From an uncultured Gammaproteobacteria bacterium (lineage in GTDB: Bacteria > Pseudomonadota > Gammaproteobacteria > Magnimaribacterales > D2472): a stretch of 64,000 bases of DNA. Both the position numbers and the translations under genes were made by a program. The stretch covers positions 35,471 to 99,470 of the forward strand of contig CAZFYG010000003.1 in assembly GCA_964523375.1 (NCBI GenBank), read 5' to 3'. Positions 40,246-64,000 of this stretch are shown here, piece after piece. Within the stretch, counting starts at the first letter, position 1. Every line of letters starts with the position of its first letter. Below the pieces are notes generated by a model. That model was not told the DNA's origin and did not search any database. It saw only the letters and a list, made by a program, of their open reading frames with translations.

Positions 40246-41166
40246 TCAGGTTATAGGCTTTAAATTTGAACAAACACGATTGTATTCATTTATAGTATCT
40301 TCAATAATTTCTTTAACAGGTTTAATTTCAGATATTAGGCCAACAGATTGTCCTGATAATGCTGGAGCTGCATTCATGTCACCATCAAAATATAGATTTT
40401 TAATATTCATTAATGCAGACATGTCCATTTTCCCATCTTCATTTATTTTATTAGTTAAATCTGTTTTCAGCGCCCTAATAACTGGTTTAGATTTTTTATT
40501 AAGAACTAGAGTTCCATCAATAGGAGAGTCAATAATAGAGTTCTTAAAATTATTATGTACAGGTGATTCAAGGCTAGATACAAATCTTGTTCCCATCTGT
40601 ATTCCATCTGCGCCAGCCGCTATAGCCGAAGCCATACCAATACCATCCACAATCCCACCGGCTGCTATTAATGGGATATCTATTTGTTTTTTTATTGCTT
40701 GTATTAAAACTGTTAAGCCAACTTCTACAGGGCTCTTAAAGCCCCCTCCTTCAGTTCCTTCTACAACCAACCCATCAACCCCTGCGTTATATGCTTTTAA
40801 TGCTCCATCAAGGCTTGGAACGGCATGATAAACAACGATACCAGCATCTTTCAGCACTTTTACATATTTAGTTGGATCACCTGCTGAGGTTGTTACAAAC
40901 TTTACTCCATGCTCAACACAAAAATTTACCATTGAATCATCCTTAAGGAAAAGAAGAGGGAGATTCACACCAAAGGGCTTATCAGTGAGAGACGACATTT
41001 TAGCTATCTCATTTTTACAAATATCAACTTCACCAGAGGATGTTTCAATAATACCAAGGCCTCCAGCATTGCAAACAGCAGAAGCTAATTTACTTCTTGC
41101 AATCCATCCCATTGGAGCCTGAATAATTGGGTATTTGACACCAGAGTGTTCTAGAAATTTATTCAT
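40246..41166 (-). CDS. Nitronate monooxygenase/FabK-like FMN oxidoreductase
   Basis: IIQAPMG, AGGLG, FGVNL, IAAGGI, QMGTRF. Confidence 0.85.
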   Translation of the reverse strand: MNKFLEHSGVKYPIIQAPMGWIARSKLASAVCNAGGLGIIETSSGEVDICKNEIAKMSSLTDKPFGVNLPLLFLKDDSMVNFCVEHGVKFVTTSAGDPTKYVKVLKDAGIVVYHAVPSLDGALKAYNAGVDGLVVEGTEGGGFKSPVEVGLTVLIQAIKKQIDIPLIAAGGIVDGIGMASAIAAGADGIQMGTRFVSSLESPVHNNFKNSIIDSPIDGTLVLNKKSKPVIRALKTDLTNKINEDGKMDMSALMNIKNLYFDGDMNAAPALSGQSVGLISEIKPVKEIIEDTINEYNRVCSNLKPIT

Positions 41167-42510: not shown

Positions 42511-43395
42511 CTAGAGGTTGAGATAGAGTTTCTTGAGACGTATATTCATGGGACCTGGTTGATCTGAGTTACCTATAGACCTTCCATCAATATTAATAAC
42601 GTGTCTCAATGAACCAAGCGTACCAGTAATAAAAGCCTCATCCGCTGAGTAAACGTCAACAAGGGAAAAATTCTTCTCATAAACAGGTATATTATTTTCT
42701 TTACATACATGAATTACTTTTTTTCTAGTTATTCCATTCATACAATAATCACCCGAGCTCGTAAAGACCTCACCATTTTTTATAATAAAAAAATTACATG
42801 AATTAGTAGTATTTACAAAACCATGAGGATCAAGCATCAATGCCTCATCGGCTCCCATTTTTTTTGCTTGAATGCAGGCAAGTATACAATTTAATTTAGA
42901 ATGGCTATTTAACTTTGGGTCCTGACTCATTGGCAAGCCTCTAACCTGAGGGACTGTGGCTAATTTAATACCATCATTGGATTTTGCATCATCAGAATGC
43001 TCCAAGATAATAACCAAACTAGGACCATCTTTTGACAAATCAGGTTGCTGAAAAGGCTTTACTTTTTCACCTCTCGTAACCATAAGTCTTGCATGCGCAT
43101 TATCAACCATTTTGTTTGCTACTCTAGTTTCCTCTAAGGCACCAATAACTTCACTTTTTGACATTGATAGGTTTATATCTATTGCTTTTAGACCCTCAAA
43201 CAAACGATCAATGTGTTCATCTAAAAAAATCCAATTACCATCAACAAGCCTTAACCCCTCCCATATACCATCACCCATTAAGAAACCGCTATCATAAACA
43301 GATATTTTTGCATCTTGTCTTTTATACAAAGAACCATTTATGTAAATTAAGATGTCTTTATTTTTATTTAAATGTGATTGGATGTGATTAGCCAT
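42511..43395 (-). CDS. Class IV (fold-type IV) PLP aminotransferase, BCAT/D-AAT-like
   Basis: SVYDSGFLMGDGIWEG, DPKLNSHSK, EALMLD, GITR, ADEAFITGT. Confidence 0.9.
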   Translation of the reverse strand: MANHIQSHLNKNKDILIYINGSLYKRQDAKISVYDSGFLMGDGIWEGLRLVDGNWIFLDEHIDRLFEGLKAIDINLSMSKSEVIGALEETRVANKMVDNAHARLMVTRGEKVKPFQQPDLSKDGPSLVIILEHSDDAKSNDGIKLATVPQVRGLPMSQDPKLNSHSKLNCILACIQAKKMGADEALMLDPHGFVNTTNSCNFFIIKNGEVFTSSGDYCMNGITRKKVIHVCKENNIPVYEKNFSLVDVYSADEAFITGTLGSLRHVINIDGRSIGNSDQPGPMNIRLKKLYLNL

Positions 43396-43494
43396 TTTTA
43401 AAACAGTTATTAGTTAATACTTATTACATCTTTTGCTAACGGTCTAGTCAACATAAATTAGTAAAAATTATTTGTAATATGCTTTAATTAAAAA

Positions 43495-44370
43495 ATGAAA
43501 AAACTATCTACCTTTTTAGTTATTTGTTGGTATTTACTTTCCTATTTCATTTCAATAATAGTTTTAGATCAAATAAGCATAATTGAAAATATATGGATAA
43601 GAATATTAATTGCTCATATTGTGGCCACGATTATTATATATGTGGGTAGTTTGGTGCATAATAATTCAAGTCTCTATGATCCATTTTGGTCTGTTGCGCC
43701 TATCCCTATTACTTTTTACTTATTTTTTACTCCCGGACTAAGCAATATTACATGCTTGAATAAGTTATTTATTACTTTTCCTATTTTTATTTGGTCAGTG
43801 AGGCTAACTAGAAATTGGTTTATTTCCTGGGATGGCTTTAGTCATGAGGATTTTAGGTATATCAATCTTAAGAAGGGAAATAAACTAAAGCTTGAATTTA
43901 TCAATTTTACAGGAATCCATCTTATTCCAACTTTACAAGTCAATCTATCATTGGCCCCATTGTATTTTATACACAATAGTGTCGAGCTAAATGAAACTAA
44001 CTTCTTATTAATATTAGCAAGTATTTTTACTATGCTGGCTGTAGCTATAGAAACATTAGCAGATGAACAAATGAGGTTATTTAAAAAAGATAGATTGAAT
44101 GACGGTACCACCATGACTAAAGGTCTTTGGCATTATTCAAGACATCCAAATTACTTTGGTGAAGTTATGTTTTGGGTAGGAATTTATCTTATGGCTATAT
44201 TAACAACAGAAACGCCTACTTGGCTCCTAATAGCTCCAGTTTCTATGCTTATGTTATTTATTTTTATATCCTGTCCAATTATGGATAACAGAAGCTTGGA
44301 AAGAAGACATGACTACCAATCCTATATGACTAAGACCTCATCTCTTATTCCGTGGGTTCCTAAAAAATAG
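43495..44370 (+). CDS. DUF1295 (steroid 5-alpha-reductase-like) membrane protein
   Basis: NSSLYDPFWS, EDFRY, ADEQM, GLWHYSRHPNYFGE. Confidence 0.88.
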   Translation: MKKLSTFLVICWYLLSYFISIIVLDQISIIENIWIRILIAHIVATIIIYVGSLVHNNSSLYDPFWSVAPIPITFYLFFTPGLSNITCLNKLFITFPIFIWSVRLTRNWFISWDGFSHEDFRYINLKKGNKLKLEFINFTGIHLIPTLQVNLSLAPLYFIHNSVELNETNFLLILASIFTMLAVAIETLADEQMRLFKKDRLNDGTTMTKGLWHYSRHPNYFGEVMFWVGIYLMAILTTETPTWLLIAPVSMLMLFIFISCPIMDNRSLERRHDYQSYMTKTSSLIPWVPKK

Positions 44371-44372
44371 AC

Positions 44373-44401
44373 AAAAAAAAGCACCGACAAGCGGTGCTTT
44401 T
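44373..44401. terminator. Bidirectional intrinsic terminator between DUF1295 and the TonB receptor
   Basis: A8-GCACCG-ACAAG-CGGTGC-TTTT. Confidence 0.85.
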
Positions 44402-44416
44402 AAAGTCTAGATTAAA

Positions 44417-47119
44417 TTACAGTGTAATTTTAAAACCAAGGTATGACATTACTCCTCTTGGGTCATGATGTTTCGCATCATAACTAAAGTTAGCAGCATC
44501 ATAAACCTGAGGTGCCTCTTCATCTGTTGCATTATTAACACCAGCTGACAAAGTAATCATAGATTCACCCCATTCAAGATCAAATGTATATTTAAGATCT
44601 AAAGTAGTGAAACTATCAATGTCCTGAGTATAACCATTCGCAGCAGCTGAAGCAGGAATTGCTCTAGTAGTTTCATATTCTGAAACATTTCTAATAAATG
44701 CTGCAAAATTATGATTACCGTTCGAAAGCATACCTGTAATTACAGATTTAGTTTCAGGCATGGATCTAGCAAAGTTATCATGGTTGAATAAACCAACAAC
44801 ATCTTTAGTTCCGCCAGCCCCATCAGGAATCTTATACTCTAGCATTCTAGCTGTATTAAGACCTATTGATGCTTGTCCTAATGGTGTATCAAAGCTGTAA
44901 GTCGCTTCAAGATCAAAACCACTTGCATCAATACTTGCTGCATTGAAATAACTAGTAGTAACACCAACAAGAGTTCCATTTGTTCTAATGATATCTGTAG
45001 AATCTGGGTTAGCTATAATTTTCCCTTGAGCACTCTCAAGAGTAACAACATTTTTATAATCAACAGTCCAGTAATCAAGTGTTACAGATGTTTGATCGTT
45101 TGGAGTCCAAATAGCACCAAAATTCATATTATCAGATTCTTCTGGGGTTAAGTTTTCATTTTTCGCAACTGCAACTCTAATAAATGAAACACTGCCTCTC
45201 GTTGTTCCATCAGTATTAAAGTCTTGTAAACCTTGAAGTGAAACTAATGAAGAACTTAATTGTGAGAGAGAAGGTTCTCTAAACGAAGTACTGTAAGATC
45301 CCCTTAGAACTAGCTCATCAGACATTTGATATCTTAATGAAGCTTTAGGGTTGTATGTGGATTCAGAATCTAAGTTCTCAAATCTAGCAGCACCTTTAAA
45401 TGAAAGTTTATCAGTAAGATCTTTTCCAGCTTCAACAAAAAATGCTGTTGAGTCTCTTCTTGACTCACTTTCAAGTCCGCCACCTAAAAATATTAGGTCT
45501 GATTGCTGGGAAATACTTCCATCTTCAGCAAATAATGTTGTTGATTCATCATTCCTAACAATTTTAAATGCTTCGTTTTTGTATTGGAATCCTGTAGCAA
45601 CATCCCAACCTCTTCTTTCGCCTGTTAGAACAACATCAAAGACTTGAAGTTTAGAATCAGTCCATCTTTCTTCACCAGAAGAAATATAGTCAATTAATGA
45701 AGCAGAGTTTGAAGTTGGATCAAATAGGTTCCATGACTCAGTACCGCTAGCACCACCAACACCATTTATAGCAGCACCAAATCTGGATGTGCTTGTATCA
45801 GGTTGAAAAACGTAAGCTGATTGCGAACTTTCTGTATAGTGAACATCCCAGTCCATTCCATTATCTAAAACTCCATTAAAGCCCATAGAAACTCTAGAGT
45901 TTTGGTTTTCCCTTGGAGCAAGCGGAGATGGGAACGCTGAGCCAAGTGCTCTCCCGATCCATAATACTGGAGTAGCAAAAGGACTTCCAGCCATTCCAGG
46001 CATAATAGGTATACCTAAATATGATAATGCAGGGTATGAAGGGGACTGAGGGTTATCATTAACATTCACATCAGTAGCCATATAATCTAATTCAAAACCA
46101 ACACCATTATCTAGAGTTGTTTTCACAGAAGTATAGATACTTGTGTGATCCTCATCATTCACTAGGTTAAATCTGTCTCCATAATAGAAACCACATCTTT
46201 GACCACCATCAAAATCACCAAGTCCAGGGACGGCACCATATATGTTCGCATTAGGAACTAAAATACCATCATTAGCAACACAATTAGCATCAGGTACATT
46301 TTCACCATAGTAATAAAAACCTGCATAAGGTCCTGATGCAACCTCTGTAAGAGGATCTGCTAATATTCCACCAATTGTTGTAGCATTAAATCCGCCAATA
46401 AGTGATGGAAGATTTAAAACCGCAAAACTATTACCAAAACCACTTATCGCATTTTCAGAATATGCTGATAGGTCTTTACCTTCAAAAGGAGATCTATTTA
46501 ATTCACTGTAAGCAACAACAACATTAGTATTACCAAAGTCCTTGCCCCATATTACTCCAACTCGATCATCAGTTTGATCGCCAAGGTCAGTTTTTGATTG
46601 AGATATATTTACCTCAACACCTTCAAAGTCCCTTCTTAAAATATAATTAACAACACCGGCAACAGCATCTGAACCATATATAGATGCAGCACCTTCTTTA
46701 AGAACTTCTACTCGTTCAAGAGCAATAACAGGTATGCTGTTAGTATCTACAAATACACTACCATCATTAGCAGTATTAGCTGCTACTGCATTTCTTCTAC
46801 CATCAATTAAAACAAGAGTTGAAGAAAGACCTAAGCCTCTTAAGTTAACGTTTGAAGTACCTTGAGTTGAACCAGCAGTAAATGAATCAGGATTATTTTC
46901 AGAACCTGAGTTTACTGTTAAGTTTGCTGTAATGTCAGCTACAGATGTGGCTCCAAGCAAGTCAATAGTATCTCTACTTATAACCTCTACTGGAGACGCG
47001 CCATCTTCAGCACTTCCCTTTAGATAAGAACCAGTTACTACAACCTCTTCCACATCTTGTGCAAAAGAAAATCCAGTAAAAAGAACTAATGAAAAAATAA
47101 ACGATTGAATTAATTTCAT
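44417..47119 (-). CDS. TonB-dependent outer membrane receptor
   Basis: Signal peptide, TonB box EEVVVTGS, plug motifs NLRGLG and ERVEVLKEGAASIYGSDAVAGVVN, NENLTPEES; strong RBS AGGGGGAG. Confidence 0.93.
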   Translation of the reverse strand: MKLIQSFIFSLVLFTGFSFAQDVEEVVVTGSYLKGSAEDGASPVEVISRDTIDLLGATSVADITANLTVNSGSENNPDSFTAGSTQGTSNVNLRGLGLSSTLVLIDGRRNAVAANTANDGSVFVDTNSIPVIALERVEVLKEGAASIYGSDAVAGVVNYILRRDFEGVEVNISQSKTDLGDQTDDRVGVIWGKDFGNTNVVVAYSELNRSPFEGKDLSAYSENAISGFGNSFAVLNLPSLIGGFNATTIGGILADPLTEVASGPYAGFYYYGENVPDANCVANDGILVPNANIYGAVPGLGDFDGGQRCGFYYGDRFNLVNDEDHTSIYTSVKTTLDNGVGFELDYMATDVNVNDNPQSPSYPALSYLGIPIMPGMAGSPFATPVLWIGRALGSAFPSPLAPRENQNSRVSMGFNGVLDNGMDWDVHYTESSQSAYVFQPDTSTSRFGAAINGVGGASGTESWNLFDPTSNSASLIDYISSGEERWTDSKLQVFDVVLTGERRGWDVATGFQYKNEAFKIVRNDESTTLFAEDGSISQQSDLIFLGGGLESESRRDSTAFFVEAGKDLTDKLSFKGAARFENLDSESTYNPKASLRYQMSDELVLRGSYSTSFREPSLSQLSSSLVSLQGLQDFNTDGTTRGSVSFIRVAVAKNENLTPEESDNMNFGAIWTPNDQTSVTLDYWTVDYKNVVTLESAQGKIIANPDSTDIIRTNGTLVGVTTSYFNAASIDASGFDLEATYSFDTPLGQASIGLNTARMLEYKIPDGAGGTKDVVGLFNHDNFARSMPETKSVITGMLSNGNHNFAAFIRNVSEYETTRAIPASAAANGYTQDIDSFTTLDLKYTFDLEWGESMITLSAGVNNATDEEAPQVYDAANFSYDAKHHDPRGVMSYLGFKITL

Positions 47120-47270
47120 AATACTCCCCCTTGAGTTTAAAAATATTAATATTCAGCAAGCACTTTATGTACTCACAGCCTAATTTTGCACTGTTAATAA
47201 AGAATAGCAATAGTATTGTGCATAATTGCCCAACAAAATTTAGGTTAATAAAGTGGCTTTATTAATTTAT

Positions 47271-48227
47271 TTATGGTCTTAATTGCTGAGACTTTTCAGA
47301 CCGCAGATGTATGAAGAAGAAATAAGTTGCTACAGCACTAAGCAAATGCCATATTCCATGTGCTTGAAAAATGGAATCTGGATTACAGTTTGCATTATCA
47401 GGTGTACCTGTTAGCCAAATTGCAAAAGCAGACATATAAGCAAGCATCCCTAAAAAATACCATTTATAACTTCTTATGCCAGTTGGCTTTTTATCTGCCA
47501 ACAGGCCAGGCAGCCAAAATAGAAAAACCCACCAAAATGATTCTGGGTTGGCCAGTATATCGCCTATTGTTGTTCCAAAAAGAAACAATACTAAAAAGCC
47601 TACAAACCCAGATAAAAATCTATTAATAGGTGACCAGAATTTATATAAAAACTCTGATATAACCCAAAGACCGATAGAAGTTCCAAATAAATTAAAACCT
47701 ATGCCTAAATCCCAAGAGGTAAACCATCTGGCAACAGAGTAAATAATGACAATGGAGAAGTATGTTTTTATAAGTTTGGATGATGACCATCTACCCATTA
47801 ATGAGACGTTGTATAGCCATGGAAAAATAATATACATTATCATACTCAAGTTATCAGCCCACCCACCCCATTCTGTATTTGTTCCATGCATTAACATCGA
47901 ACCAGGGCCAAGCCACCATGCAGCAGATGCATATAAAATTGAGATTGGCGTTAAACCTATAAACTTATTATCAGGAGAAGTTTCTTCGTGTGATATAACC
48001 CAAAAAATATAAAGGCCAACAACCATAAAACCTAAATTGCTTAAAGTATTAACAGGTTCTCTAAATGCTCCGCTACTAACTCTTTCACACCATCTCGATG
48101 CTTCTCCAATTAGGCTAGTATCAGATGAGTTAATCAAACCTGATAACCCTAAAACATAAAATATAATTAAAAATATTATCGAGATAACAAGTGCAATATT
48201 GAATGGAGAATATTTTATATTTAACAT
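47271..48227 (-). CDS. Alkaline ceramidase-like (CREST superfamily) membrane hydrolase (start moved to ATG 48227)
   Basis: WCER...EPVNTLSNL, GSMLMHG (SxxxH), HGIWH (HxxxH), multiple TM helices. Confidence 0.78.
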   Translation of the reverse strand: MLNIKYSPFNIALVISIIFLIIFYVLGLSGLINSSDTSLIGEASRWCERVSSGAFREPVNTLSNLGFMVVGLYIFWVISHEETSPDNKFIGLTPISILYASAAWWLGPGSMLMHGTNTEWGGWADNLSMIMYIIFPWLYNVSLMGRWSSSKLIKTYFSIVIIYSVARWFTSWDLGIGFNLFGTSIGLWVISEFLYKFWSPINRFLSGFVGFLVLFLFGTTIGDILANPESFWWVFLFWLPGLLADKKPTGIRSYKWYFLGMLAYMSAFAIWLTGTPDNANCNPDSIFQAHGIWHLLSAVATYFFFIHLRSEKSQQLRP

Positions 48228-48312
48228 TAAAATCCTTTTTTTAGAGATATTAAATTTATATCTAAATAATATACAAATTTTTAATACATACAATAGAGCA
48301 ATATTTAAAAAC

Positions 48313-48338
48313 AAAAAAGGGCCCGTGAAGAGCCCTTT
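48313..48338 (-). terminator. Intrinsic terminator after etfA
   Basis: AAAGGGC / GCCCTTT stem with a T run on the minus strand. Confidence 0.7.
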
Positions 48339-48353
48339 GTTAGATTTATAGTT

Positions 48354-49283
48354 TTATAGTTGGGAATCTAATTCTGGCAAAGCATTAAATAAATCTGCCA
48401 CTAAACCATAATCTGCAACTTGAAAAATAGGCGCATCCTCATCTTTATTTATTGCAACGATAACCTTAGAGTCCTTCATGCCTGCTAAATGCTGTATAGC
48501 TCCAGAAATACCTACAGCTATATATAAATCAGGCGCAACAATTTTACCTGTCTGACCAACCTGGTAGTCATTTGGAACAAATCCTGCGTCTACTGCTGCC
48601 CTTGATGCTCCAACAGCTGCTCCAAGTTTATCGGCAATCGAATCAAGCAAATGGAAATTCTCACCTGACTGCATCCCTCTTCCACCAGAAATAATAATAT
48701 CTGCCGCAGTAAGCTCAGGCCTATCGCTTTCTGCAATTTCTTCAGAAACAAATTGGCTTATATTTAATGAATCTACAGGATTAACATTAACAACTTCTAC
48801 ATCAGCGCTATTTTGAGTAACAGCGTCAAATGCTGTTGATCTTACGGTTATAACTTTCAATGCATCATTTGACTTTACAGTTGCTATACAGCTACCAGCG
48901 TAGATTGGTCTTTTAAAGGTATCTGCAGATTCAACAGAAATAATATCTGATATTTGTTGTGTATCCAGCTTTGCAGCAACTCTAGGCATTAAGTTTTTAC
49001 CAAATGTCGTAGCAGGAGCTAAAATATTTGAATAATCTGCAGATAAAGACACAACCAATGCTGATACATCTTCCGCTATTTGATTTAAATATAACGGATC
49101 ATTTGAATGGATAATTTTAGAAACACCATCAACCTGCTGACACTCAGTAACAACACTTTCACAATCTGAACCAGCAACTAAAATATGAATATCAACACCA
49201 AGTTGAGTTGCAGCCGCAACAGTATTAAGTGTTGAACCCTTTAAGTTATTATTATCATGTTCTGCTATTACTAATGTACTCAT
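48354..49283 (-). CDS. etfA: Electron transfer flavoprotein alpha subunit
   Basis: [45 protein letters not shown]. Confidence 0.97.
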
Positions 49284-50032
49284 GAGATCACCTTTGCTTC
49301 ATTTTTAAGTTTATCAACCAATTGATCGACTGAGTCAACCATAATTCCTGCTGCTCTGGCTTCGGGCAGTTCTACTTTGAGTAATTCGGTTCTTGGCGAT
49401 GCATCAACACCAGTATCTACCAAAGGAATTACTTTTAGTTCCTTCTTTTTTGCTTTCATAATATTTGGAAGAGATGCGTATCTAGGTTCATTCAAACGCA
49501 AGTCTGTTGTCACAATTGCAGGAGTTGTTAACTTCAATGTTTGAAGACCACCATCAATTTCTCTTGTTACTGATACTGTTCCATCTTCTATGATAAGTTC
49601 AGATGCATTAGTGGCTTGAGGTAAATCAAGAATCGCTCCAAGCATTTGCCCAGTTTGGTTGTTATCACCATCAATTGCTTGTTTACCAAGAATAATAAGG
49701 TCAGGTGATTCATCATTAACAACTTTAGCTAAAACTTTTGCTAGAGCCAAGGGTTCAAGCAATGAATCACATTCAACCAGAATTGCTCTATCGGCACCAA
49801 GTGCTAAAGCAGTTCTTAATTGTTCTTGAGATTCTGTTTTGCCTATAGTAATAGCAATAACCTCAGAAGCCTTGCCTGACTCTTTAACTCTAACGGCCTC
49901 TTCTAACGCTATTTCACAAAAAGGATTTACAGACATTTTTACATTATTTAAATCAACATTTGAATTGTCACCTAGAGGTCTAACTTTTACGTTATAGTCA
50001 ACCACTCTTTTAATTGGAACTAGTATTTTCAT
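49280..50032 (-). CDS. etfB: Electron transfer flavoprotein beta subunit
   Basis: [42 protein letters not shown]. Confidence 0.97.
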
Positions 50033-50081
50033 ATTTAACTCTTAATTTAGGGGTTTATCGGGCTATAATTGTAATGTCTTT

Positions 50082-50096
50082 TGTAAACATTTTACA
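50082..50096. promoter_or_regulatory. HexR/RccR-type box in the divergent etfB / ETF-QO promoter region
   Basis: TGTAA-ACATT-TTACA. Confidence 0.55.
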
Positions 50097-50115
50097 GCAA
50101 TAAGTGAGGTTAATT

Positions 50116-51747
50116 TTGGAAAGAGATGTAATGGAGTATGACGTGGTTGTAGTAGGTGGTGGGCCATCTGGTTTATCAGCTGCAATTAAATTTGCACAGT
50201 TAAATAAAGAAAATGGTACTAGTTATTCAATTTGTCTTTTAGAGAAAGGTTCAGAAGTTGGAGCACACATTCTTTCGGGTAATGTATTTCAACCAAATGC
50301 TCTTGATGAGTTGATACCTGATTGGAAAGAGAAAAATGCACCATTAAATATTCCTGTTAAAAAAGATAAATTACTTTTTTTATTAAATAAGTTTTCTATA
50401 CCAGTGCCTGCATTTGTGATGCCTCCAATGAACAATCATGGTAATTATGTAATTAGCCTTGGAAATCTTTGCAGATGGCTGGCTGAGCAAGCAGAAAATC
50501 TAGGGGTTGAAATATTCCCTGGCTTCCCTGCAAGTAAATTAATCTACGAAGATGAAAAAGTAGTTGGAGTTCAAACAGGTGATATGGGTATTTCTGCTAG
50601 TGGCGATATTAAACCAGGCCATGAACCAGGAATAATTATTAAAGCTAAATATACTGTCCTAAGCGAAGGTTGCAGAGGACATCTTGGCAAAGAAGTTATA
50701 AATAAATTCAACCTTTCGGATGGCAAAGACCCCCAGCATTACGGCATAGGATTTAAAGAGGTATGGAAATTACAAGAAGGACTTCACGAGCCGGGACTAG
50801 TAATGCATACCAATGGTTGGCCTACTCCATTTGATACACCATCAGGCTCTTATTTATATCATGGAGAAAATAATGAGGCATATGTTGGATATGTAGTTCC
50901 ATTAGATTATAAAAACCCATCAATGAGTCCATTTGATGAGTTCCAGAAATGGAAAACCCATCCATCTATTAAAAAATATTTACAAGGCGGCGAAAGACTT
51001 TCTTATGGAGCGAGAGCTCTTATAAAAGGTGGCCTGCAGTCATTGCCAAAAATGGAGTTCCCAGGCGGGCTTCTTACTGGTGACAATGCAGGAACGCTAA
51101 ATTTTTCAAAAATAAAAGGTTCCCATACTGCTATGAAATCAGGATTGATAGCTGGGGAACATATTTTTGAAAATATCAATAATGACATTAAAACAGACAT
51201 TACATATGACGATAGAATACTTAGTTCTTGGATATACACAGAGCTTTATAAGTCTAGAAATTTTGGTCCTATATTTCATAAATTTGGAGCACTGATTGGC
51301 GCTTTTTTAAATGCATTAGATCAGTTTATATTTAGAGGAAAGTTACCTTTCACATTAAACAATCCAACGCCTGATCATGAGTGCTTAAAAAAATCATCTG
51401 AAGTAAATAAAATAGAATACCCAAAACCAGATGGTGTGTTTTCTTTTGACAAGCTTTCGTCTGTCTATCTATCCAATACAAATCATGAGGAAGACCAGCC
51501 ATGCCATCTTCAATTAAAAGACCCATCTATACCAATATCTGTAAATTTACCTATGTATGATGAGCCGGCTCAAAGATACTGCCCTGCAGGCGTTTATGAG
51601 GTTGTTAACAAGGAAGGTGAGGATAGATTTGTTATTAATGCACAAAACTGTGTTCATTGTAAAACTTGTGACATAAAAGACCCGTCCCAAAATATCCAAT
51701 GGGTTACACCAGAGGGACCTGGTGGGCCAAACTATCCAAATATGTAA
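50116..51747 (+). CDS. ETF:ubiquinone oxidoreductase (start moved to TTG 50116 after RBS GAGG)
   Basis: DVVVVGGGPSG, GAHILSG, KIKGSH, 4Fe-4S RYCPAG...NCVHCKTCDIKDP. Confidence 0.95.
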   Translation: MERDVMEYDVVVVGGGPSGLSAAIKFAQLNKENGTSYSICLLEKGSEVGAHILSGNVFQPNALDELIPDWKEKNAPLNIPVKKDKLLFLLNKFSIPVPAFVMPPMNNHGNYVISLGNLCRWLAEQAENLGVEIFPGFPASKLIYEDEKVVGVQTGDMGISASGDIKPGHEPGIIIKAKYTVLSEGCRGHLGKEVINKFNLSDGKDPQHYGIGFKEVWKLQEGLHEPGLVMHTNGWPTPFDTPSGSYLYHGENNEAYVGYVVPLDYKNPSMSPFDEFQKWKTHPSIKKYLQGGERLSYGARALIKGGLQSLPKMEFPGGLLTGDNAGTLNFSKIKGSHTAMKSGLIAGEHIFENINNDIKTDITYDDRILSSWIYTELYKSRNFGPIFHKFGALIGAFLNALDQFIFRGKLPFTLNNPTPDHECLKKSSEVNKIEYPKPDGVFSFDKLSSVYLSNTNHEEDQPCHLQLKDPSIPISVNLPMYDEPAQRYCPAGVYEVVNKEGEDRFVINAQNCVHCKTCDIKDPSQNIQWVTPEGPGGPNYPNM

Positions 51748-51786
51748 TTTAATTATAAATAAACCAAAAATGAATGGAGAATGAAT

Positions 51787-53559
51787 ATGAAAAACAATAA
51801 ACCTTTAATTTTAATAGTTGTTATTACATGCGTTAATTTATTGTTGTGGACAACATCCATGAATAATAAAGAAGAATCTTTGATAGATGCCGAGTTTGAA
51901 AACTATTTAGCGGAATCATGGGAGCAAGGATTAGCTGATTCACCCATATATGCATCAATGCTTGGTGATAAAAGATTCAATACTGACATTGTTTCTAACT
52001 CTATTAGTGAAATTGAACAAAGAAAACTAGAAACCATTGAATCATATAGTGAATTTAAAACATTCAATATCGAAGATTTATCTGAAGGGAATAAATTAAA
52101 TTACATGATCTTAGATCAAGATTTTAGTCTTGCTGTTGAATCACATAAATATCCCGAACAGTATATGAATTTAAATCAAAGAGGTGGAATTCAGTCGTTC
52201 TATGAGACCGGATCTCGCATGGTCTTTAACTCATATCAAGACTACAAGGATTGGCTTACAAGATTAACTAAATACGTTACAAACATTAATAATGCTAATA
52301 ATAACTACAGAGATGGTTTAGAGCTAGGATATACACAACCTAAACACATAACAACATATGTGCTTGAGCAAATCGAATCAATGATAGCGGCAGATGTTAA
52401 TATAAATCCCTATTTAAAAGTTTTTAAAGAAGCATCCCTGGAAGTAGTTACCTCCCAGCAAAAGGATGAATTAATATTAAGCGCAAAGGAGTTAATTACA
52501 AATTCATTAAATCCAGCCTATTCTGAATTGGCAGAATTTTTAAGAAATGAATATATTCCAAATTCAAGAGACTCAATTGGTATTAAAGATGTTCCAAATG
52601 GAAGTGAATGGTATGAATATCTTGCAAGATACCATACAACCACAAATCTAACCCCTGATCAGATTCATGAAATTGGTCTAAATGAAATTAAGCGCATAAG
52701 AGCTGAAATGGAAGAAATTATCGCATCAGTAAATTGGAATGGTGACTTTAACTCTTTCTTGAATTTTCTAAGAACAGATAAGCGCTTCTATTATGATAAT
52801 GCAGATGATCTTTTTGATGCATATCTGATAATGTCAAAAAAAATTGATCCTCTCTTACCCAAACTTTTTAAAGATTTTCAAAAAGCTCCGTATGGTGTGA
52901 CAGAGATACCAATGGAATCAGCTCCATATACGACTACTGCTTATTACAATCCTCCTAGTAAAGGTAGGCCTGGTTATTACTATGTTAATTTGTATAAACC
53001 TGAATCAAGACCTACATATGAGATACCTGTTCTAAGTGTTCATGAAGCTGTCCCAGGTCATCACTTTCAAATCTCTATAGCTCAAGAAATGGAAAATGTT
53101 CCTGAATTTAGAAAGCACCAGTCTTTTACATCCTTTGTTGAGGGTTGGGCTTTATACAGTGAAGAGCTTGGACAATACATGGGGCTTTATGATGATCCGT
53201 ACGATAAGTTTGGACAGCTGACCTATGATATGTGGAGAGCGATTAGATTAGTAGTTGATACAGGTATGCACTATAAGGATTGGACGCGTGATGATGCCAT
53301 TAACTTGTTTGTAAATAATACTGCTAAATCTATTTTAGATATAGAAAATGAAGTTGATAGATACATAGCTTGGCCTGGGCAAGCTCTAGCATACAAGATC
53401 GGTCAATTAAAAATTCTTGAACTAAGAACAAAAGCTGAAATTGAATTAGGCGAAAGCTATGATATTAAAGACTTTCATTATGAAGTTTTAAAAAGAGGTT
53501 CTGTACCTCTTTCTGTTTTAGAAACTTATATAAATGAATGGATAGAGTCTGAGAAGTAG
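51787..53559 (+). CDS. DUF885 family protein
   Basis: N-terminal hydrophobic segment, YHTTT, HEAVPGHHFQ, EGWALYSE, RAIRLVVDTG, PGQALAYKIG; RBS TGGAGA. Confidence 0.9.
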   Translation: MKNNKPLILIVVITCVNLLLWTTSMNNKEESLIDAEFENYLAESWEQGLADSPIYASMLGDKRFNTDIVSNSISEIEQRKLETIESYSEFKTFNIEDLSEGNKLNYMILDQDFSLAVESHKYPEQYMNLNQRGGIQSFYETGSRMVFNSYQDYKDWLTRLTKYVTNINNANNNYRDGLELGYTQPKHITTYVLEQIESMIAADVNINPYLKVFKEASLEVVTSQQKDELILSAKELITNSLNPAYSELAEFLRNEYIPNSRDSIGIKDVPNGSEWYEYLARYHTTTNLTPDQIHEIGLNEIKRIRAEMEEIIASVNWNGDFNSFLNFLRTDKRFYYDNADDLFDAYLIMSKKIDPLLPKLFKDFQKAPYGVTEIPMESAPYTTTAYYNPPSKGRPGYYYVNLYKPESRPTYEIPVLSVHEAVPGHHFQISIAQEMENVPEFRKHQSFTSFVEGWALYSEELGQYMGLYDDPYDKFGQLTYDMWRAIRLVVDTGMHYKDWTRDDAINLFVNNTAKSILDIENEVDRYIAWPGQALAYKIGQLKILELRTKAEIELGESYDIKDFHYEVLKRGSVPLSVLETYINEWIESEK

Positions 53560-53700
53560 TTATTTTTTTTGTTTGCATCTGTTGCTGCAATATATGACAT
53601 GCTCCCAGTCTCTTTCCCATTTTTTTCTCCATACAAAATCTAGTTTGCAAACTGGGCATGTTTTCTTCGGTAAATTAGATTTCTTAATTGATTTTGCCAA
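53560..53700 (-). CDS. DUF2256 family small cysteine-rich protein, 46 aa; missed by the ORF track
   Basis: Manual translation from [49 protein letters not shown]. Confidence 0.85.
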
Positions 53701-54226
53701 CTGGGACTTCCGTTTTAAATGAATTTATATATAAAGTATTATTTTTAGTAAAGCCCTCTTCTGTAGCAAAATTTAAAAATCGATAATACACATTTCTAGC
53801 AAGAAAACCCTCTATTTTTTTTGGTCTTACATTTACTATAGGTAGAAATACTCCATTTACTTGTTTGAGGTAAACGGGGTGACTGAAATCCAATTTAAAG
53901 GAATAATTAAAATTTGAGTGGAATGTTATATTTTTATTAGTGTCTATATCAAAATCTATAATCATATAAGGAGCTATTTCTACATTAACTGGTACCTTTT
54001 CTGAAGGAGTGACAAGAAAATAATCACCATCATCATTTCTTAAAACTTTTGAAAATAACTTTACAATTTTTCTATTTTTAATAAGAGATCCATTATAAAA
54101 CCAATCACCATTCCTATCTATTCTGATCTCTTGACCTTCACATAAATCAGGATTCCAAGAGTCAACTGGAGGAAAAATATCATCACTAAATTTTTTAATT
54201 TTATCTGTTAAATTTGAGATATTCAT
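53684..54226 (-). CDS. DUF1285 family protein
   Basis: [46 protein letters not shown]. Confidence 0.88.
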
Positions 54227-54812
54227 ATGTGGAAGTAAAAATTATAAAAAGGCCTATAAAACATAAAATTATTGAAAACAAAGATTTTATATAAATGTTG
54301 TTATAAATATTTACGTATTGAAATCTTTTTGACGTTAATAATATGCTTAAGAAAGAGAACCATAGGGTGGTAGATGCAGCAAAATAAAGTGGATAAATAT
54401 AAAAATATATTCCATTAAGACTTTTAGATAATATTGAAAATAGACTAACAAAAAAAATAAAAGCTTTTATGTTAAATAGGTTTGTAATAAACCCTACTAC
54501 AAAATTATTTTTTGAATTTTGACTAGATGATATTTTGTTATCATTAGAAATATACATTGAAGCTCCTATATAAAATATATAAGAACCTCCTATCATGCTA
54601 ATAAGAACTTTCAGTGCAGGGTAATTTAGTATAATTAGAGAGATACCGCTAGCAGCCAGAATGCAGTGTATTAAAATTCCTAATCCTATGCCGATGGCTG
54701 TAAATATACCCGCCCTCCTTCCAAAGGCAGAGCATTGTTTAATAATGATAGCCGTATCAGGGCCTGGGCTTGTTAAGGCAATAATGTAAGCAACTGTAGA
54801 AGACAGAAACAT
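54201..54812 (-). CDS. LysE/RhtB family translocator
   Basis: SPGPD motif, GFITNLFNIKA, TM pattern. Confidence 0.88.
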   Translation of the reverse strand: MFLSSTVAYIIALTSPGPDTAIIIKQCSAFGRRAGIFTAIGIGLGILIHCILAASGISLIILNYPALKVLISMIGGSYIFYIGASMYISNDNKISSSQNSKNNFVVGFITNLFNIKAFIFFVSLFSILSKSLNGIYFYIYPLYFAASTTLWFSFLSILLTSKRFQYVNIYNNIYIKSLFSIILCFIGLFIIFTSTYEYLKFNR

Positions 54813-55807
54813 TAAAGAATAACTCTTGGTTCTATCTCTAAATTGATATTAAAGTAATATTTAACCTTTGATTGAATGGCTTTAGCAAAGTTGATGACAT
54901 CTTGTTGCGACGCAATTCCGTTAGTTGTTAGAACTAAATTGTGTTTTTTTGATATAGAAACATTATGTGCTTCTGGTAGCTCATTTTTAATAAGTTGAAT
55001 TAATTTAGCAGCACCAACTTTAACAAGGTTATTTTCAAGCTCCCAGATGATTAATTCATTTAAATCAAAATGATCTGTTTTAATTGAATTGATATCTATA
55101 ATTGGATTTTTAAAAAAACTACCGGCATTTGGTTCAATCAATGGATTGGGTAATGCGGCCTCTCTAATTTCTGTAATAAGTTTGGATATGATCTGTGGGT
55201 TAAGAAATTTTTTATCAAGAGAAATGTCATTAATTTTTTTGTGTAGGGATCCATATGAAAGGCAGAGTTTTTTTTCGAGATTTGATTTAAATTCAATATG
55301 GGTAATGATCATATTTGAGCCCTTAAAGAGAGAGTCTCTATAACCAAACTTGCATTCACTTGAGCTAAACGAGTTAAAACTTCCATCCATTAAGTCAAAA
55401 AAATAAACTCTATGAATTAAAGGTTCAACATCTACACCATAAGCTCCAATATTTTGAATTGGAGAAGCACCGACTGAGCCAGGTATTAGCGAAAGGTTTT
55501 CGAAGCCATAGATATTATTATTTACTGCATACTGAACTAAATCATTCCAATTTACAGATGAGCCTACTCTGATCAAATCATTGTTTTTTTCAATTGATTT
55601 AAAGTTTAAAGAAATCACTAATCCACTATATCTATCTGGTGGGACCAGATTAGTGCCCTCGCCAAGAATAAAATATTTAATTTTTTTAGATTTAATGAAA
55701 TCAAATAGGTGTGGAAGCTCGTCCAGCTTATTAATACAAACACCATAATCTGAAACAGAGTTTATTTTTAAAGAGTTATGAATTTTATAATTCTCTTCAA
55801 GATTCAT
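54812..55807 (-). CDS. murB: UDP-N-acetylenolpyruvoylglucosamine reductase
   Basis: LGEGTN, LIPGSVGASPIQNIGAYG, FGYRDS, NAGSFFKNP, LEIEP. Confidence 0.95.
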   Translation of the reverse strand: MNLEENYKIHNSLKINSVSDYGVCINKLDELPHLFDFIKSKKIKYFILGEGTNLVPPDRYSGLVISLNFKSIEKNNDLIRVGSSVNWNDLVQYAVNNNIYGFENLSLIPGSVGASPIQNIGAYGVDVEPLIHRVYFFDLMDGSFNSFSSSECKFGYRDSLFKGSNMIITHIEFKSNLEKKLCLSYGSLHKKINDISLDKKFLNPQIISKLITEIREAALPNPLIEPNAGSFFKNPIIDINSIKTDHFDLNELIIWELENNLVKVGAAKLIQLIKNELPEAHNVSISKKHNLVLTTNGIASQQDVINFAKAIQSKVKYYFNINLEIEPRVIL

Positions 55808-56522
55808 TATTAATATATTTTATAGCAGTTTTCACATCGTCTTCAGTATCAATGCCTGGTGGAATATTGATATTAAATTTTGAAATTTTAATTTTATATC
55901 CATTGTCAAGAAATCTAAGCTGCTCTAACTTTCTTTCAATTTCATTTAGAGTGGGTTTAAGGGATACAAGTTTTTGGAGAGTAGCCATGGAGTATCCATA
56001 TATACCAATATGTTGGTAGTATGATGCGCCATCAACATATTCTATGTTTCTTACAAAATCTTTAGCAAATGATTGATCGTCAATAATTGCTTTAACGCAG
56101 TTGGGATTATCTATAATTTCTCTATTAACTATTTTATGTGCAGCTGTAACAATATTGGAAGTATTCATCTTAAAACTATCAATTAGTTCTTTAACCACCT
56201 CTTTAGGCATAAATGGCTCATCTCCCTGTAAATTTATTATCAAAGTATCTTTGTCTAGGTTTAGCTTTTTAGCTGCTTCAAAAACTCTGTCAGTTCCGGA
56301 TATATGATCTTTATCTGTAATAATTACATTAGAAGTTAAGGATTGAATATGATTCTTAATAATATCTGAGTCAGTTGCTACAAAGACATTAGGAGTGCAT
56401 AAAAGAGCATTCTCGTAGACTCTATGTATTAATGATTTGCCTGAGATGTCAACTAAGGGTTTATTTTTAAGCCTTGTTGAACCAATTCTTGATGGAATGA
56501 TAATAACTGTATTTAAAGACAT
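55797..56522 (-). CDS. kdsB: CMP-KDO synthetase
   Basis: IIPSRIGSTRLKNKPL, SGTDR, INLQGDEP, QHIGIYGY, LEQLRFL. Confidence 0.96.
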   Translation of the reverse strand: MSLNTVIIIPSRIGSTRLKNKPLVDISGKSLIHRVYENALLCTPNVFVATDSDIIKNHIQSLTSNVIITDKDHISGTDRVFEAAKKLNLDKDTLIINLQGDEPFMPKEVVKELIDSFKMNTSNIVTAAHKIVNREIIDNPNCVKAIIDDQSFAKDFVRNIEYVDGASYYQHIGIYGYSMATLQKLVSLKPTLNEIERKLEQLRFLDNGYKIKISKFNINIPPGIDTEDDVKTAIKYINNES

Positions 56523-56528
56523 TTTTAG

Positions 56529-59288: not shown

Positions 59289-59689
59289 AATCTTATTGTT
59301 CTAATCTGAACCTGTGAGTATCCATTTTTATTCAATATATCCATCATTTCTACAACCCATTGATGATATGTATTCTCCTCAGCACTTAGTATTACTTTAT
59401 CAAATGTGCTATCTAAACTAAATACAAGCTCATTTATTAACTCCCTATCAGATATCGGCGCTGTTACTCCATTAATCAAAACTGTGCCATCAGACAGAAT
59501 AGAAATCTCATTGCTCTCTTTGACCACATTTGATGAAAATGATTCAGTTTTTGGGAGCTCTAATGAAAGGAACTGCGAATCTCCAACCTTGGAAGTAACT
59601 ACAAAAAATATTACTAGAAGAAAAACTATATCTATTAATGGGGTTATCTCTATGGAAAAATTAGAGTTATTTGTTTTTAAGAACTTCAT
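59285..59689 (-). CDS. exbD: ExbD/TolR family protein
   Basis: ITPLIDIVFLLVIFFVV TM helix with the conserved Asp. Confidence 0.88.
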   Translation of the reverse strand: MKFLKTNNSNFSIEITPLIDIVFLLVIFFVVTSKVGDSQFLSLELPKTESFSSNVVKESNEISILSDGTVLINGVTAPISDRELINELVFSLDSTFDKVILSAEENTYHQWVVEMMDILNKNGYSQVQIRTIRL

Positions 59690-60288
59690 TATTTATTTAT
59701 CACATCAATGAAATCAGATACTTCTGCTTGAAGGTTGATTAATAGATGTGAGATCTTTTGCTCAAAATACTTATGCATTACAAGACCTGGTACAGCTATA
59801 AAAAGACCAAAAGCTGTTGTTATGAGCGCCTGTGAGATTCCTTCAGCTAATACATCTGGATTTGCACCCGTTACTTCAGATAATCCAGTAAAGGCAGTAA
59901 TCATACCTACCACTGTTCCCAAAAGCCCCAATAGAGGGCTAATTGTAGCCAGAGTTCCTAGCATTGTTAAATTTCTATCAAGGAGATGTTTAACCTCGGA
60001 GGCTTTCTCTTCTATCTTAGATTCGAGGTTTTCTCTTTGAAGATCTTTATATTTAATACAATTTATCAACAAATATCCCAAAGATGAAAGCTGTGAAATT
60101 TCTTCAGATTGTCTCTGATTTAAAAGGTTTTTATTATAAAGATTAATAATTTGATTTTTTAGACCATGAGGAGAAACAAGTCTCAGCTGAAGAAACCACA
60201 ATCTTTCAATAGATATTGAAATAATTAATACTGAGCAGGCTAAAAGTGGCCACATAAAGGCACCACCAGCAATAATAAATTCACTCAT
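59689..60288 (-). CDS. exbB: MotA/TolQ/ExbB proton channel protein
   Basis: SPLLGLLGTVVGMI, GISQALITTAFGL. Confidence 0.88.
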   Translation of the reverse strand: MSEFIIAGGAFMWPLLACSVLIISISIERLWFLQLRLVSPHGLKNQIINLYNKNLLNQRQSEEISQLSSLGYLLINCIKYKDLQRENLESKIEEKASEVKHLLDRNLTMLGTLATISPLLGLLGTVVGMITAFTGLSEVTGANPDVLAEGISQALITTAFGLFIAVPGLVMHKYFEQKISHLLINLQAEVSDFIDVINK

Positions 60289-60956
60289 AATTCAATTAGC
60301 CCTCTATTATCTAAATAATATTTTCTATCTAAAATATTTACAAAATCATTATCATGAGTAGCAACAATTAATGCAACATCATTATTATTTGAGAGCTCTA
60401 GAACTAGGTTCTGTATGTTCAGTGCATTCTTTTTATCTAAATTTCCAGTTGGTTCGTCAAGAAATATATATTCTGGTTTATTAATCATAGCTCTAGCTAC
60501 CGCAACCCTTTGCTTTTCTCCTCCCGAGAGCTTCCAAGGTAAGTGATTTAACCTTTCGCTTAATCCAATAGATTTAGCTAAATCCCGCACTTTAATATCT
60601 AAATTTTGTAAATCGCCTTTTAATTTAAGAGGTAGAGCAATATTTTCATAGACTGTTAGATCTTCCAATAAATGATGATGCTGATAAACAAAACCAAAGT
60701 TGTTTAACCTTATTTTTGATTTTTGATTGGAAGTCAGATCATCCATAACCTCGTTGTTCAATTCAATTGAGCCCGATGACTGTTTATCTAATAGCGCAAG
60801 TAATTGAAGTAAGGTAGATTTACCAGATCCTGACTGACCTGATATAGCAACTGTATCACCTTTTTCCACTATTAAATTAAGGTTTTTTAGAACCTCAATT
60901 TCATACCCATCAATAGAATATGTTTTAGAAATATTTATAGCTTTTAAATTATTCAT
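60285..60956 (-). CDS. lolD: Lipoprotein-releasing ABC ATPase (start moved to ATG 60956)
   Basis: GQSGSGKST, GFVYQHHHLL, LSGGEKQR, DEPTGNLD. Confidence 0.92.
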   Translation of the reverse strand: MNNLKAINISKTYSIDGYEIEVLKNLNLIVEKGDTVAISGQSGSGKSTLLQLLALLDKQSSGSIELNNEVMDDLTSNQKSKIRLNNFGFVYQHHHLLEDLTVYENIALPLKLKGDLQNLDIKVRDLAKSIGLSERLNHLPWKLSGGEKQRVAVARAMINKPEYIFLDEPTGNLDKKNALNIQNLVLELSNNNDVALIVATHDNDFVNILDRKYYLDNRGLIEL

Positions 60957-62196: not shown

Positions 62197-62205
62197 GATT
62201 TATTG

Positions 62206-63650: not shown

Positions 63651-64000
63651 CTAAGCCCTATCAGCTTTATCTTTGTTATTAGAAGACCTTATCATAGCTC
63701 TCATTTGATCCCAATCTTCGTCACTTAATTTATCTAGATTGGAGAATGTTCCTCCTCCTGTTAAATATTGAGCTCCATCAATTGCTATTGTCTGTCCAGT
63801 TAAATAATCACAACCATCAGCCATCAGAAAGGTAGCTAAATTTTGTAATTCATTCATTTCTCCAACCCTTCCGAGAGGTATATTACCCATAGAGTTATCA
63901 TCACCGGCTCCAGGATTAAGTCTCTCCCATGCCCCCTTAGTTGGAAAAGGACCAGGAGCGATTGCATTGACCTTAATACCATACTTGCCCCACTCAGCTG
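63651..64000 (-). CDS. SDR oxidoreductase, 2,4-dienoyl-CoA reductase-like; 3' part only
   Basis: The frame continues past the track's Met to the window edge: AEWGKYGIKVNAIAPGPFPTKGAWERL...IPLGR...YLTGQTIAIDG. Confidence 0.85.
   Translation of the reverse strand, partial: AEWGKYGIKVNAIAPGPFPTKGAWERLNPGAGDDNSMGNIPLGRVGEMNELQNLATFLMADGCDYLTGQTIAIDGAQYLTGGGTFSNLDKLSDEDWDQMRAMIRSSNNKDKADRA

Follow-up and report, generated by a model that had tools for sequence, protein, structure and literature searches.

Gene content of the locus

Whether genes that lie side by side belong to one pathway is the question raised by an 8-kb stretch (positions 43495-51747) of the window, the 64,000 nucleotides of DNA analysed here, which comes from the streamlined genome of a SAR86 bacterium (1.23 Mb, 92.5% complete). 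A first-pass annotation had read this stretch as a possible locus for the scavenging of complex lipids, in which a ceramidase-like hydrolase (CER), a TonB-dependent outer-membrane receptor (TBDR), a DUF1295 protein and the ETF system, with an aldehyde dehydrogenase and a short-chain dehydrogenase further along, would recall eukaryotic sphingolipid breakdown. The features concerned are:

43495-44370, + strand: DUF1295 membrane protein (PF06966), related to ICMT, PEMT and steroid-5-alpha-reductase
44377-44401: hairpin terminator common to the converging TBDR and DUF1295 genes (10-bp stem, then a T run)
44417-47119, - strand: TBDR of 900 amino acids, with Plug and beta-barrel domains
47120-47270, - strand: CER-TBDR spacer of 151 nt, with a weak AT-rich hairpin and a 23-nt element
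47271-48227, - strand: CER, a predicted intramembrane zinc hydrolase of the CREST type (PF05875), 318 amino acids, identified by Pfam, profile and model
48316-48338, - strand: intrinsic terminator in the etfA/CER interval (9-bp GC-rich stem, then a T run)
48354-49283, - strand: etfA (Pfam)
49280-50032, - strand: etfB (Pfam)
50104-51747, + strand: ETF-QO, the ETF-ubiquinone oxidoreductase (PF05187 and PF21162)
59285-60288: ExbB and ExbD genes
62206-63639, - strand: class-3 aldehyde dehydrogenase (ALDH3), identified by its best solved relatives
63651-63998: fragment of a short-chain dehydrogenase (SDR)

The gene identities and the layout given in the first-pass annotation are correct: CER lies upstream of the TBDR in the same orientation, the DUF1295 gene converges on the TBDR, and the best solved relatives of the dehydrogenase at about 62 kb are class-3, fatty or steroid aldehyde dehydrogenases. 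The ETF system contains the domains PF01012, PF00766, PF05187 and PF21162. The full PF05875 frame extends over 47271-48314 on the minus strand and scores 53.7 bits, above the cut-off of 32.5; because the hairpin at 48316-48338 overlaps this longer, TTG-started frame, the ATG at 48227, which had been annotated as the start of CER, is likely to be right.

CER is a relative of the alkaline ceramidases

The zinc-ligand motifs reported in CER are real, as the residues of S110-x3-H114, D125 and H290-x3-H294 are shared by all or by no fewer than 90% of 33 homologues, in which C47 and C281 are also near-invariant. PF05875 is the precomputed Pfam label on all of the listed homologues, and databases already name homologues "ceramidase". 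With CER as a single sequence, the search of solved structures gave no match at E values up to 1, and human alkaline ceramidase 3 (ACER3; PDB 6G7O) was reached by profile only, at an E value of 2.2e-5 and with the motifs aligned. In this alignment S110, H114, D125, H290 and H294 of CER correspond to S77, H81, D92, H217 and H221 of ACER3, while C47 and C281 correspond to the C21-C196 disulfide; the roles of the ACER3 residues have been described previously (PMC9436119, PMC6303388). The two proteins share about 17% sequence identity. The calcium site of ACER3 (D19-W-C-E-x-N24 together with E33) is kept in part, as W46, C47, E48 and E57, whereas the positions of the ligands D19 and N24 are R45 and V50 in CER and are variable across the homologues, such that the calcium site is incomplete.

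An alignment-based AlphaFold model of CER (pLDDT 92, pTM 0.90), which replaced a single-sequence model with a pLDDT of 46, contains the seven-helix core fold of the ACER3/AdipoR type. Its best structural match is ACER3, with a Z-score of 19.4 and an rmsd of 3.2 Å over 217 residues; other CREST members match with Z-scores of 14-16 (SIDT and AdipoR about 15). Unlike ACER3, CER has one more membrane helix at its N-terminus and an insert of two helices (residues ~200-243), giving 10 predicted transmembrane helices with the N-terminus inside.

CER is a sound relative of the alkaline ceramidases in which none of the five CREST catalytic residues is missing. It is most likely active as a zinc-dependent hydrolase within the membrane, with a mechanism like that of ACER3, in which case the three histidines would hold the zinc, the aspartate would activate a water molecule and the serine would steady the oxyanion. 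The predicted substrate class is an amide-linked or similar lipid. The secreted neutral ceramidases of bacteria such as Pseudomonas aeruginosa are zinc-using ceramide hydrolases; they are soluble and unrelated to CER in family and fold.

The side of the membrane on which CER would work is predicted from charge. Lys and Arg residues number 14 in the segments predicted inside and 3 in those outside, and the totals over the 33 homologues are 430 and 157, respectively. Together with the extra N-terminal helix, this bias suggests that the active site is at the periplasmic face, whereas the pocket of ACER3 is cytoplasmic. By reorienting the protein, the extra helix would bring the catalytic pocket, the WCE loop and the cysteine pair to the inner membrane's periplasmic leaflet.

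The ETF, ALDH3 and DUF1295 genes are placed independently of CER

Synteny across relatives had been put forward as a check of the lipid-scavenging proposal, which was to fall if the linkage of the genes was not conserved. It is not conserved. The etfA gene is present as a single copy in 38 of 41 relatives, and ETF-QO is collinear with etfBA, DUF885, DUF1285, LysE, MurB and KdsB across the family. ALDH3 is found in 40 of the 41, always 11-14 kb from etfA, and this spacing holds even where CER is missing or lies elsewhere; the interval between ALDH3 and CER is occupied by DUF885, cell-envelope, Lol and ExbBD genes. The etfBA, ETF-QO and ALDH3 genes are near-universal, with positions independent of CER, and their inclusion in the proposed locus has to be withdrawn. 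A functional reason for the position of etfBA beside CER was considered and rejected, because of the strong terminator between them and because the ETF block belongs to the syntenic backbone.

The DUF1295 gene, also a proposed member, is present in 30 of the 41 relatives and its presence does not track that of CER. Its product matches PF06966 at 148.5 bits and ICMT at 28.5 bits; PEMT, at 23.1 bits, is below the 25-bit cut-off, and the C-terminal part weakly matches PF02544 (Steroid_dh, 29 bits). A sequence search for solved structures found no relative of the DUF1295 protein.

Distribution of CER and the TBDR

CER was found in 23 of the 41 relatives, in two of the copies with an in-frame stop; these genomes are 70-97% complete, so some of the absences may be assembly gaps. 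Adjacency of etfA and CER is kept in 17 of 28 SAR86-type species. Orthologues of the TBDR, with at least 52% identity, are present in 10 of the 41 relatives. Three of these genomes (G025, G031 and G034) have no CER match, and in a fourth (G032) the TBDR orthologue is 745 kb from CER; there is no DUF1295, ETF or CER gene near the orthologue in any of the four. Elsewhere the neighbours of TBDR orthologues are FolD, DAO, M28 peptidase and TesB.

The full arrangement of CER, TBDR and DUF1295 is confined to the genus of the window (g1, genomes G001-G004) and, in a looser form, to a sister genus (g3), where an NMO/FabK-like gene separates the TBDR from CER; a TBDR-linked catabolic locus conserved across lineages was not found. 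The TBDR is downstream of CER in just five of the 28 SAR86-type species, all from the window's genus, and in the other contexts of CER there is no other TBDR within about 9 kb. The interval between CER and DUF1295 contains glutathione-transferase genes, an amidohydrolase gene or nothing in other genera. Adjacency to the TBDR thus represents one lineage among roughly ten different CER contexts examined, and a first search pass gave about 8-22 TBDR-like candidates per 1.2 Mb of SAR86 sequence, so that one chance adjacency would not be surprising. The co-location of CER and the TBDR is not clearly beyond chance.

Outside the close relatives, the CER family is present in 25 of 401 Pseudomonadota genomes. 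A pooled Pfam tally of 95 proteins neighbouring these homologues, based on an ORF caller that is crude for high-GC genomes, revealed no recurrent family, the top family accounting for 4 of the 95. A fatty-acid hydroxylase is among the neighbours of CER elsewhere. The same lack of an informative neighbourhood was reported for the bacterial CREST "hypothetical groups 1 and 2", which are mostly proteobacterial, cluster with the alkaline ceramidases and were of unknown function (Pei et al. 2011, PMC3146951).

Based on these comparisons, the 8-kb stretch is best read as a composite and not as a dedicated pathway locus, with a probability of about 0.6. The etfBA and ETF-QO genes, and ALDH3 14 kb away, would be a near-universal backbone with an order kept throughout the SAR86 order; CER would be an accessory gene that came to adjoin etfA in one SAR86 family; and the CER/DUF1295 interval would be a variable slot, filled by the TBDR in g1 and g3. 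The main value of this result as it stands is negative, in that the picture of a "sphingolipid pathway" arises from near-universal backbone genes beside a variable slot.

Sphingolipid genes

A complete breakdown pathway of the eukaryotic type would comprise a ceramidase, a sphingosine kinase, an S1P lyase, ALDH3 and TECR, and the middle steps of this series were not found in the 92.5% complete genome. The best match to the sphingosine-kinase-type family PF00781 is 20.5 bits and that to the S1P-lyase-type family PF00282 is 19 bits, both below the cut-off, the latter inside the alanine transaminase gene. Three of the four PF00155 matches were identified (alanine transaminase, a HisC fragment and GlyA), none of them as an alpha-oxoamine synthase of the Spt type; the fourth scores right at the cut-off of 19.7 bits. 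A role for CER on self-made ceramide was rejected because an Spt-type gene was not found among the identified PF00155 matches.

A periplasm-facing CER in a cell where no gene for sphingolipid synthesis was found makes an imported or non-sphingolipid amide lipid a reasonable substrate, that is, an amide-linked or similar lipid which this cell would not make by a sphingolipid route. Of the earlier proposal, CER as a complete enzyme of the zinc-hydrolase type, with an amide lipid as its plausible substrate, is retained, and the multi-gene locus is abandoned.

The CER-TBDR pair

The TBDR has a plug and a 22-strand barrel (PF07715, 65.4 bits; PF00593, 108.7 bits). None of the substrate-specific NCBIfam models reaches its cut-off against it, and among solved receptors the plug domain alone matches, giving no clue to the ligand. 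Two strong terminators flank the pair, one between etfA and CER (48316-48338; -14.6 kcal/mol, z = -4.0) and one after the TBDR (44377-44401; -15.6 kcal/mol, z = -5.2), while the AT-rich hairpin just past the CER stop codon, within 47120-47270, is weak (-7.4 kcal/mol, z = -1.1). This arrangement of two co-oriented genes 151 nt apart makes a genus-specific CER-TBDR transcript possible. The spacer also contains a conserved 23-nt element (47207-47229) that five species of the window's genus share; as it occurs once in the genome and was not found outside the genus, no regulon can be inferred from it. An Rfam scan of 43300-50200 gave no riboswitch or leader.

These features bear on the first alternative to the composite reading, a genus-specific unit of two genes in which the TBDR would import a lipid with an amide linkage from outside the cell (ceramide, N-acyl amine or amino-lipid) and CER would cleave it on the periplasmic side of the inner membrane; the freed fatty acid would enter general beta-oxidation, and ETF, DUF1295 and ALDH3 would belong to general metabolism. 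It would make sense for a lipid hydrolase facing the periplasm to be encoded upstream of an importer in the outer membrane, which counts against the reading that the two genes are not a unit. The absence of a strong terminator within the pair and of a detected Spt-type gene are both consistent with such a unit, and the pair has been kept in five species despite divergence of the TBDR to 73-80% and of CER to 79-98% identity. SAR86 regions with TBDR genes were reported to vary from genome to genome and frequently to include enzymes of lipid degradation (Dupont et al. 2012, PMC3358033), a pattern which a lineage-specific CER-TBDR unit would fit, being from the same organism group and likewise pairing a TBDR with a lipid hydrolase; the text of that study, however, contains no ceramidase-type enzyme, "sphingo" or "electron transfer flavoprotein", and the CER-TBDR pair is found in one genus. 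Against the unit, the pairing is limited to this genus with a further gene intervening in g3, the phyletic patterns of the two genes differ, CER elsewhere has no accompanying TBDR, and the conserved spacer element suggests a separate control region for the TBDR. On balance the two-gene unit is rather unlikely.

Were the pairing functional, it would provide a testable entry into the use of amide-linked lipids by an abundant ocean bacterium. The more specific proposal, that the genus uses a periplasm-facing, ACER3-like intramembrane amidase with a dedicated TBDR to import and split amide-linked algal lipids, is improbable. If true, it would give the bacterial ceramidase/CREST branch its first function, none having appeared since 2011, and no bacterial enzyme of the CREST family before CER would have had a role assigned to it; literature searches found nothing relevant on SAR86 and ceramidase, and no paper on bacterial sphingolipids that characterises a bacterial alkaline-type ceramidase.

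Alternatively, CER could be a membrane-maintenance enzyme acting on the cell's own envelope lipids (for instance in the turnover of lyso-lipids, or of acyl chains amide-bound in amino-lipids or lipid A precursors) and unrelated to nutrient uptake. The predicted position of its active site, at the leaflet where envelope lipids are handled, agrees with this, as do the scattered family without catabolic neighbours in the 401 Pseudomonadota genomes and the neighbouring fatty-acid hydroxylase. Presence in 23 of 41 close relatives, with two copies interrupted by a stop, would be odd for a maintenance enzyme, and the analysis identified no pathway that would supply an endogenous substrate; this role is distinctly unlikely. 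The full sphingolipid route, with DUF1295 as a TECR-like reductase and the SDR as a further member, has homologues of three steps in the window (a ceramidase type, a class-3 ALDH and, in DUF1295, a distant relative of the steroid-5-alpha reductases). It is already contradicted by the data on synteny and phyletic distribution, no kinase or lyase match passes its cut-off, and it is very improbable indeed.

The periplasmic orientation predicted for the bacterial enzymes is a minor point of structure that can be checked. If it is true, the reversed sidedness would explain the conserved cysteine pair, which in human ACER3 puzzlingly faces the reducing cytoplasm.

Gene content and pathway

The genome to which the window belongs is 1.23 Mb in size, 92.5% complete and about 33% G+C. 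The first-pass annotation had read a group of co-located genes in the window as a possible locus for scavenging complex lipids; the genes are present and co-located, and Pfam bore out the naming of each:

43495–44370, +, DUF1295 gene
44417–47119, −, TonB-dependent receptor gene (TBDR; 900 amino acids, plug and barrel domains)
47271–48227, −, PF05875 “Ceramidase” membrane protein gene (CER)
48354–50032, −, etfA and etfB
50104–51747, +, ETF-QO
62206–63639, class-3 aldehyde dehydrogenase (ALDH3)
63651–63998, SDR, open-ended frame

The genes separating ETF-QO from ALDH3 (DUF885, DUF1285, LysE, MurB, KdsB, an MsbA-LpxK fusion, ExbBD and LolCDE-type genes) are unconnected with lipid catabolism. For the analogy that had been drawn with eukaryotic sphingolipid breakdown to hold, the ceramidase and ALDH3 steps would have to be joined by a sphingosine kinase and an S1P lyase; in the 92.5%-complete genome no match above cut-off was found for DAGK_cat-type kinases (PF00781) or for PF00282-type lyases. 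Of the four PF00155 matches in this genome, the three that were named (alanine transaminase, a HisC fragment and GlyA) include no alpha-oxoamine synthase, and the fourth scored only at the 19.7-bit cut-off, which would make self-made ceramide an unlikely substrate of CER.

The ceramidase-like protein

CER likely starts at the ATG at 48227, giving a product of 318 amino acids, because a frame extended to the TTG would overlap a terminator. Close homologues in public databases are already labelled “ceramidase” or “ceramidase domain-containing protein”. In an alignment of 33 diverse homologues E48, P58, G107, H114, D125, H290 and W293 are invariant, and conservation is 90% or more at C47, N60, S110, C281, P283, Q288 and H294. 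The profile of the homologue alignment matched human alkaline ceramidase 3 (ACER3; 6G7O) with an E value of 2.2e-5, placing the S-x3-H, D and H-x3-H residues of CER, with the Asp 11 residues past the His of S-x3-H, on ACER3 S77, H81, D92, H217 and H221, which are essential or near-essential by mutagenesis (PMC9436119). C47 and C281 align with the ACER3 disulfide C21–C196, described together with the calcium loop in PMC6303388. An AlphaFold model built from the alignment has high confidence (pLDDT 92, pTM 0.90), and its top structural match is ACER3 (Z 19.4, rmsd 3.2 Å, 217 residues), followed by SIDT1/2, the adiponectin receptors and Myomaker (Z 13–16). A place for CER in the bacterial alkaline-ceramidase/CREST branch, as a new member carrying the full set of catalytic residues, is well supported. 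Our literature search found no paper on the SAR86 CER protein and none characterising any bacterial alkaline-type ceramidase.

CER differs from ACER3 in an additional N-terminal hydrophobic helix (residues 4–29), present in almost all aligned bacterial homologues, in a two-helix insert (about residues 200–243) common to some homologues only, and in the absence of the calcium ligands D19 and N24. With ten helices, 14 Lys/Arg residues of CER are predicted inside and 3 outside (430 versus 157 over the 33 homologues), and by the positive-inside rule this bias predicts that both termini are inside and that the WCE loop, cysteine pair and zinc site are at the periplasmic face, the side opposite to that in ACER3. 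The extra bacterial helix should put the conserved cysteine pair in the oxidising periplasm, whereas the C21–C196 disulfide of the human protein, puzzlingly, is on the cytoplasmic side.

CER copies in two relatives each carry one in-frame TAA (G004:C1:364037-364987, locus L013 9538–10491; G036:C12:15195-16124), which could reflect pseudogenisation or assembly error and hints that CER is dispensable.

Conservation of the gene neighbourhood

Gene order was compared in 20-kb regions from 20 relatives and 3-kb flanks from 28 further species. The order DUF1295, TBDR, CER, etfAB is complete in the window's genus (window and G001–G004); the sister genus (G008) has the same order with an NMO/FabK-like gene between TBDR and CER. 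In the family's other genera CER adjoins etfA, at times with an intervening amidohydrolase or 173-aa gene, and is flanked on its other side by glutathione-transferase genes or different content. In other SAR86 families CER adjoins EamA, DUF5916, S9 peptidases, NMO-like genes, an OYE-type reductase, a fatty-acid hydroxylase and others. Among the 28 species with 3-kb flanks etfBA-CER is retained in 17, and the TBDR lies downstream of CER only in the window's genus (5 species); at none of the loci examined is there another TBDR closer to CER than about 9 kb.

CER was found in 23 of the 41 relatives' genomes, a TBDR orthologue (at least 52% identity) in 10, DUF1295 in 30, etfA in 38 and ALDH3 in 40, and these phyletic patterns disagree with one shared pathway. 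TBDR orthologues occur in three genomes of one family where no CER was found, and in G032 a distance of 745 kb separates TBDR from CER; several CER-less genomes carry DUF1295, and several that bear CER lack it. The etfA–ALDH3 spacing is 11–14 kb order-wide, even where CER is missing or elsewhere, and these two genes are backbone synteny. Conserved linkage across relatives, the test that the first-pass annotation had itself put forward, was not found, and the reading as a multi-gene lipid-scavenging locus fails.

The etfA–ALDH3 spacing is kept across all four SAR86 families sampled (window 48354–63639; G026, G031, G033, G034, G038), and the cell-envelope, Lol and ExbBD genes of this stretch form a long, stable backbone.

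Several SAR86 lineages have an NMO/FabK-like flavoprotein or paralogue only a few kb from CER (window 40246–41166; L017 8541–9446; L024 7554–8528; L028 14334–15311), and in G008 it directly adjoins CER; this recurrence may be merely shared synteny. In one genus a fatty-acid hydroxylase family gene (PF04116; L027 10819–11667, G013) is located two genes away from CER, and it is the sole lipid-modifying neighbour of CER observed in any genus other than the window's.

Outside SAR86, a sample of 401 Pseudomonadota genomes yielded CER-family members in 25; when the Pfam families of 95 neighbour proteins at 20 of these loci were pooled, none was recurrent (the top one occurred 4 times), in agreement with Pei et al. 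2011, who concluded the same for bacterial CREST groups. Contigs assigned to Alphaproteobacteria, the PS1 clade and the OCS116 cluster (L058, L059, L062) carry CER homologues of 53–54% identity, which could result from gene transfer among marine lineages that occur together, or from mis-binning.

The possible CER–TBDR pair

The intrinsic terminators on either side of the two genes are strong, the one separating etfA from CER at −14.6 kcal/mol (z −4.0) and the one past TBDR at −15.6 kcal/mol (z −5.2), and the AT-rich hairpin that follows the CER stop codon is a weak one (z −1.1), so that, judged from these signals, CER and TBDR could be co-transcribed in the window's genus. The 151-nt spacer between them holds a block conserved among the five species, whose flanking proteins are 73–80% identical, and no Rfam family matches the region. 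The block contains one element:

47207–47229, −, 23-nt element with GCAAT...ATTGC arms, upstream of TBDR

It occurs once in the window's genome, and no copy of it was found beyond the genus; it suggests that TBDR has its own control region, and is likely to be an operator or leader private to TBDR. A single chance adjacency of CER and TBDR is unremarkable, because each genome has many TBDR-like candidates and CER occurs in about ten distinct contexts. We put a genus-specific CER–TBDR pair at roughly one chance in four; if true, it would be one further instance of what Dupont et al. 2012 proposed for the TBDR regions of SAR86, namely that these hold combinations of lipid-degrading enzymes varying from genome to genome.

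Outside the genus the neighbours of the TBDR orthologues are variously FolD, a DAO-type oxidoreductase, an M28 peptidase, an acyl-CoA synthetase or TesB, with none of CER, DUF1295 or ETF beside them. In another SAR86 family the DAO-type FAD oxidoreductase gene is on the same strand downstream of the orthologous TBDR (L033 12432–13697; L034 10819–12090), directly after it in one genome and with an opposite-strand M28 peptidase gene intervening in the other, and is possibly a different partner for the receptor.
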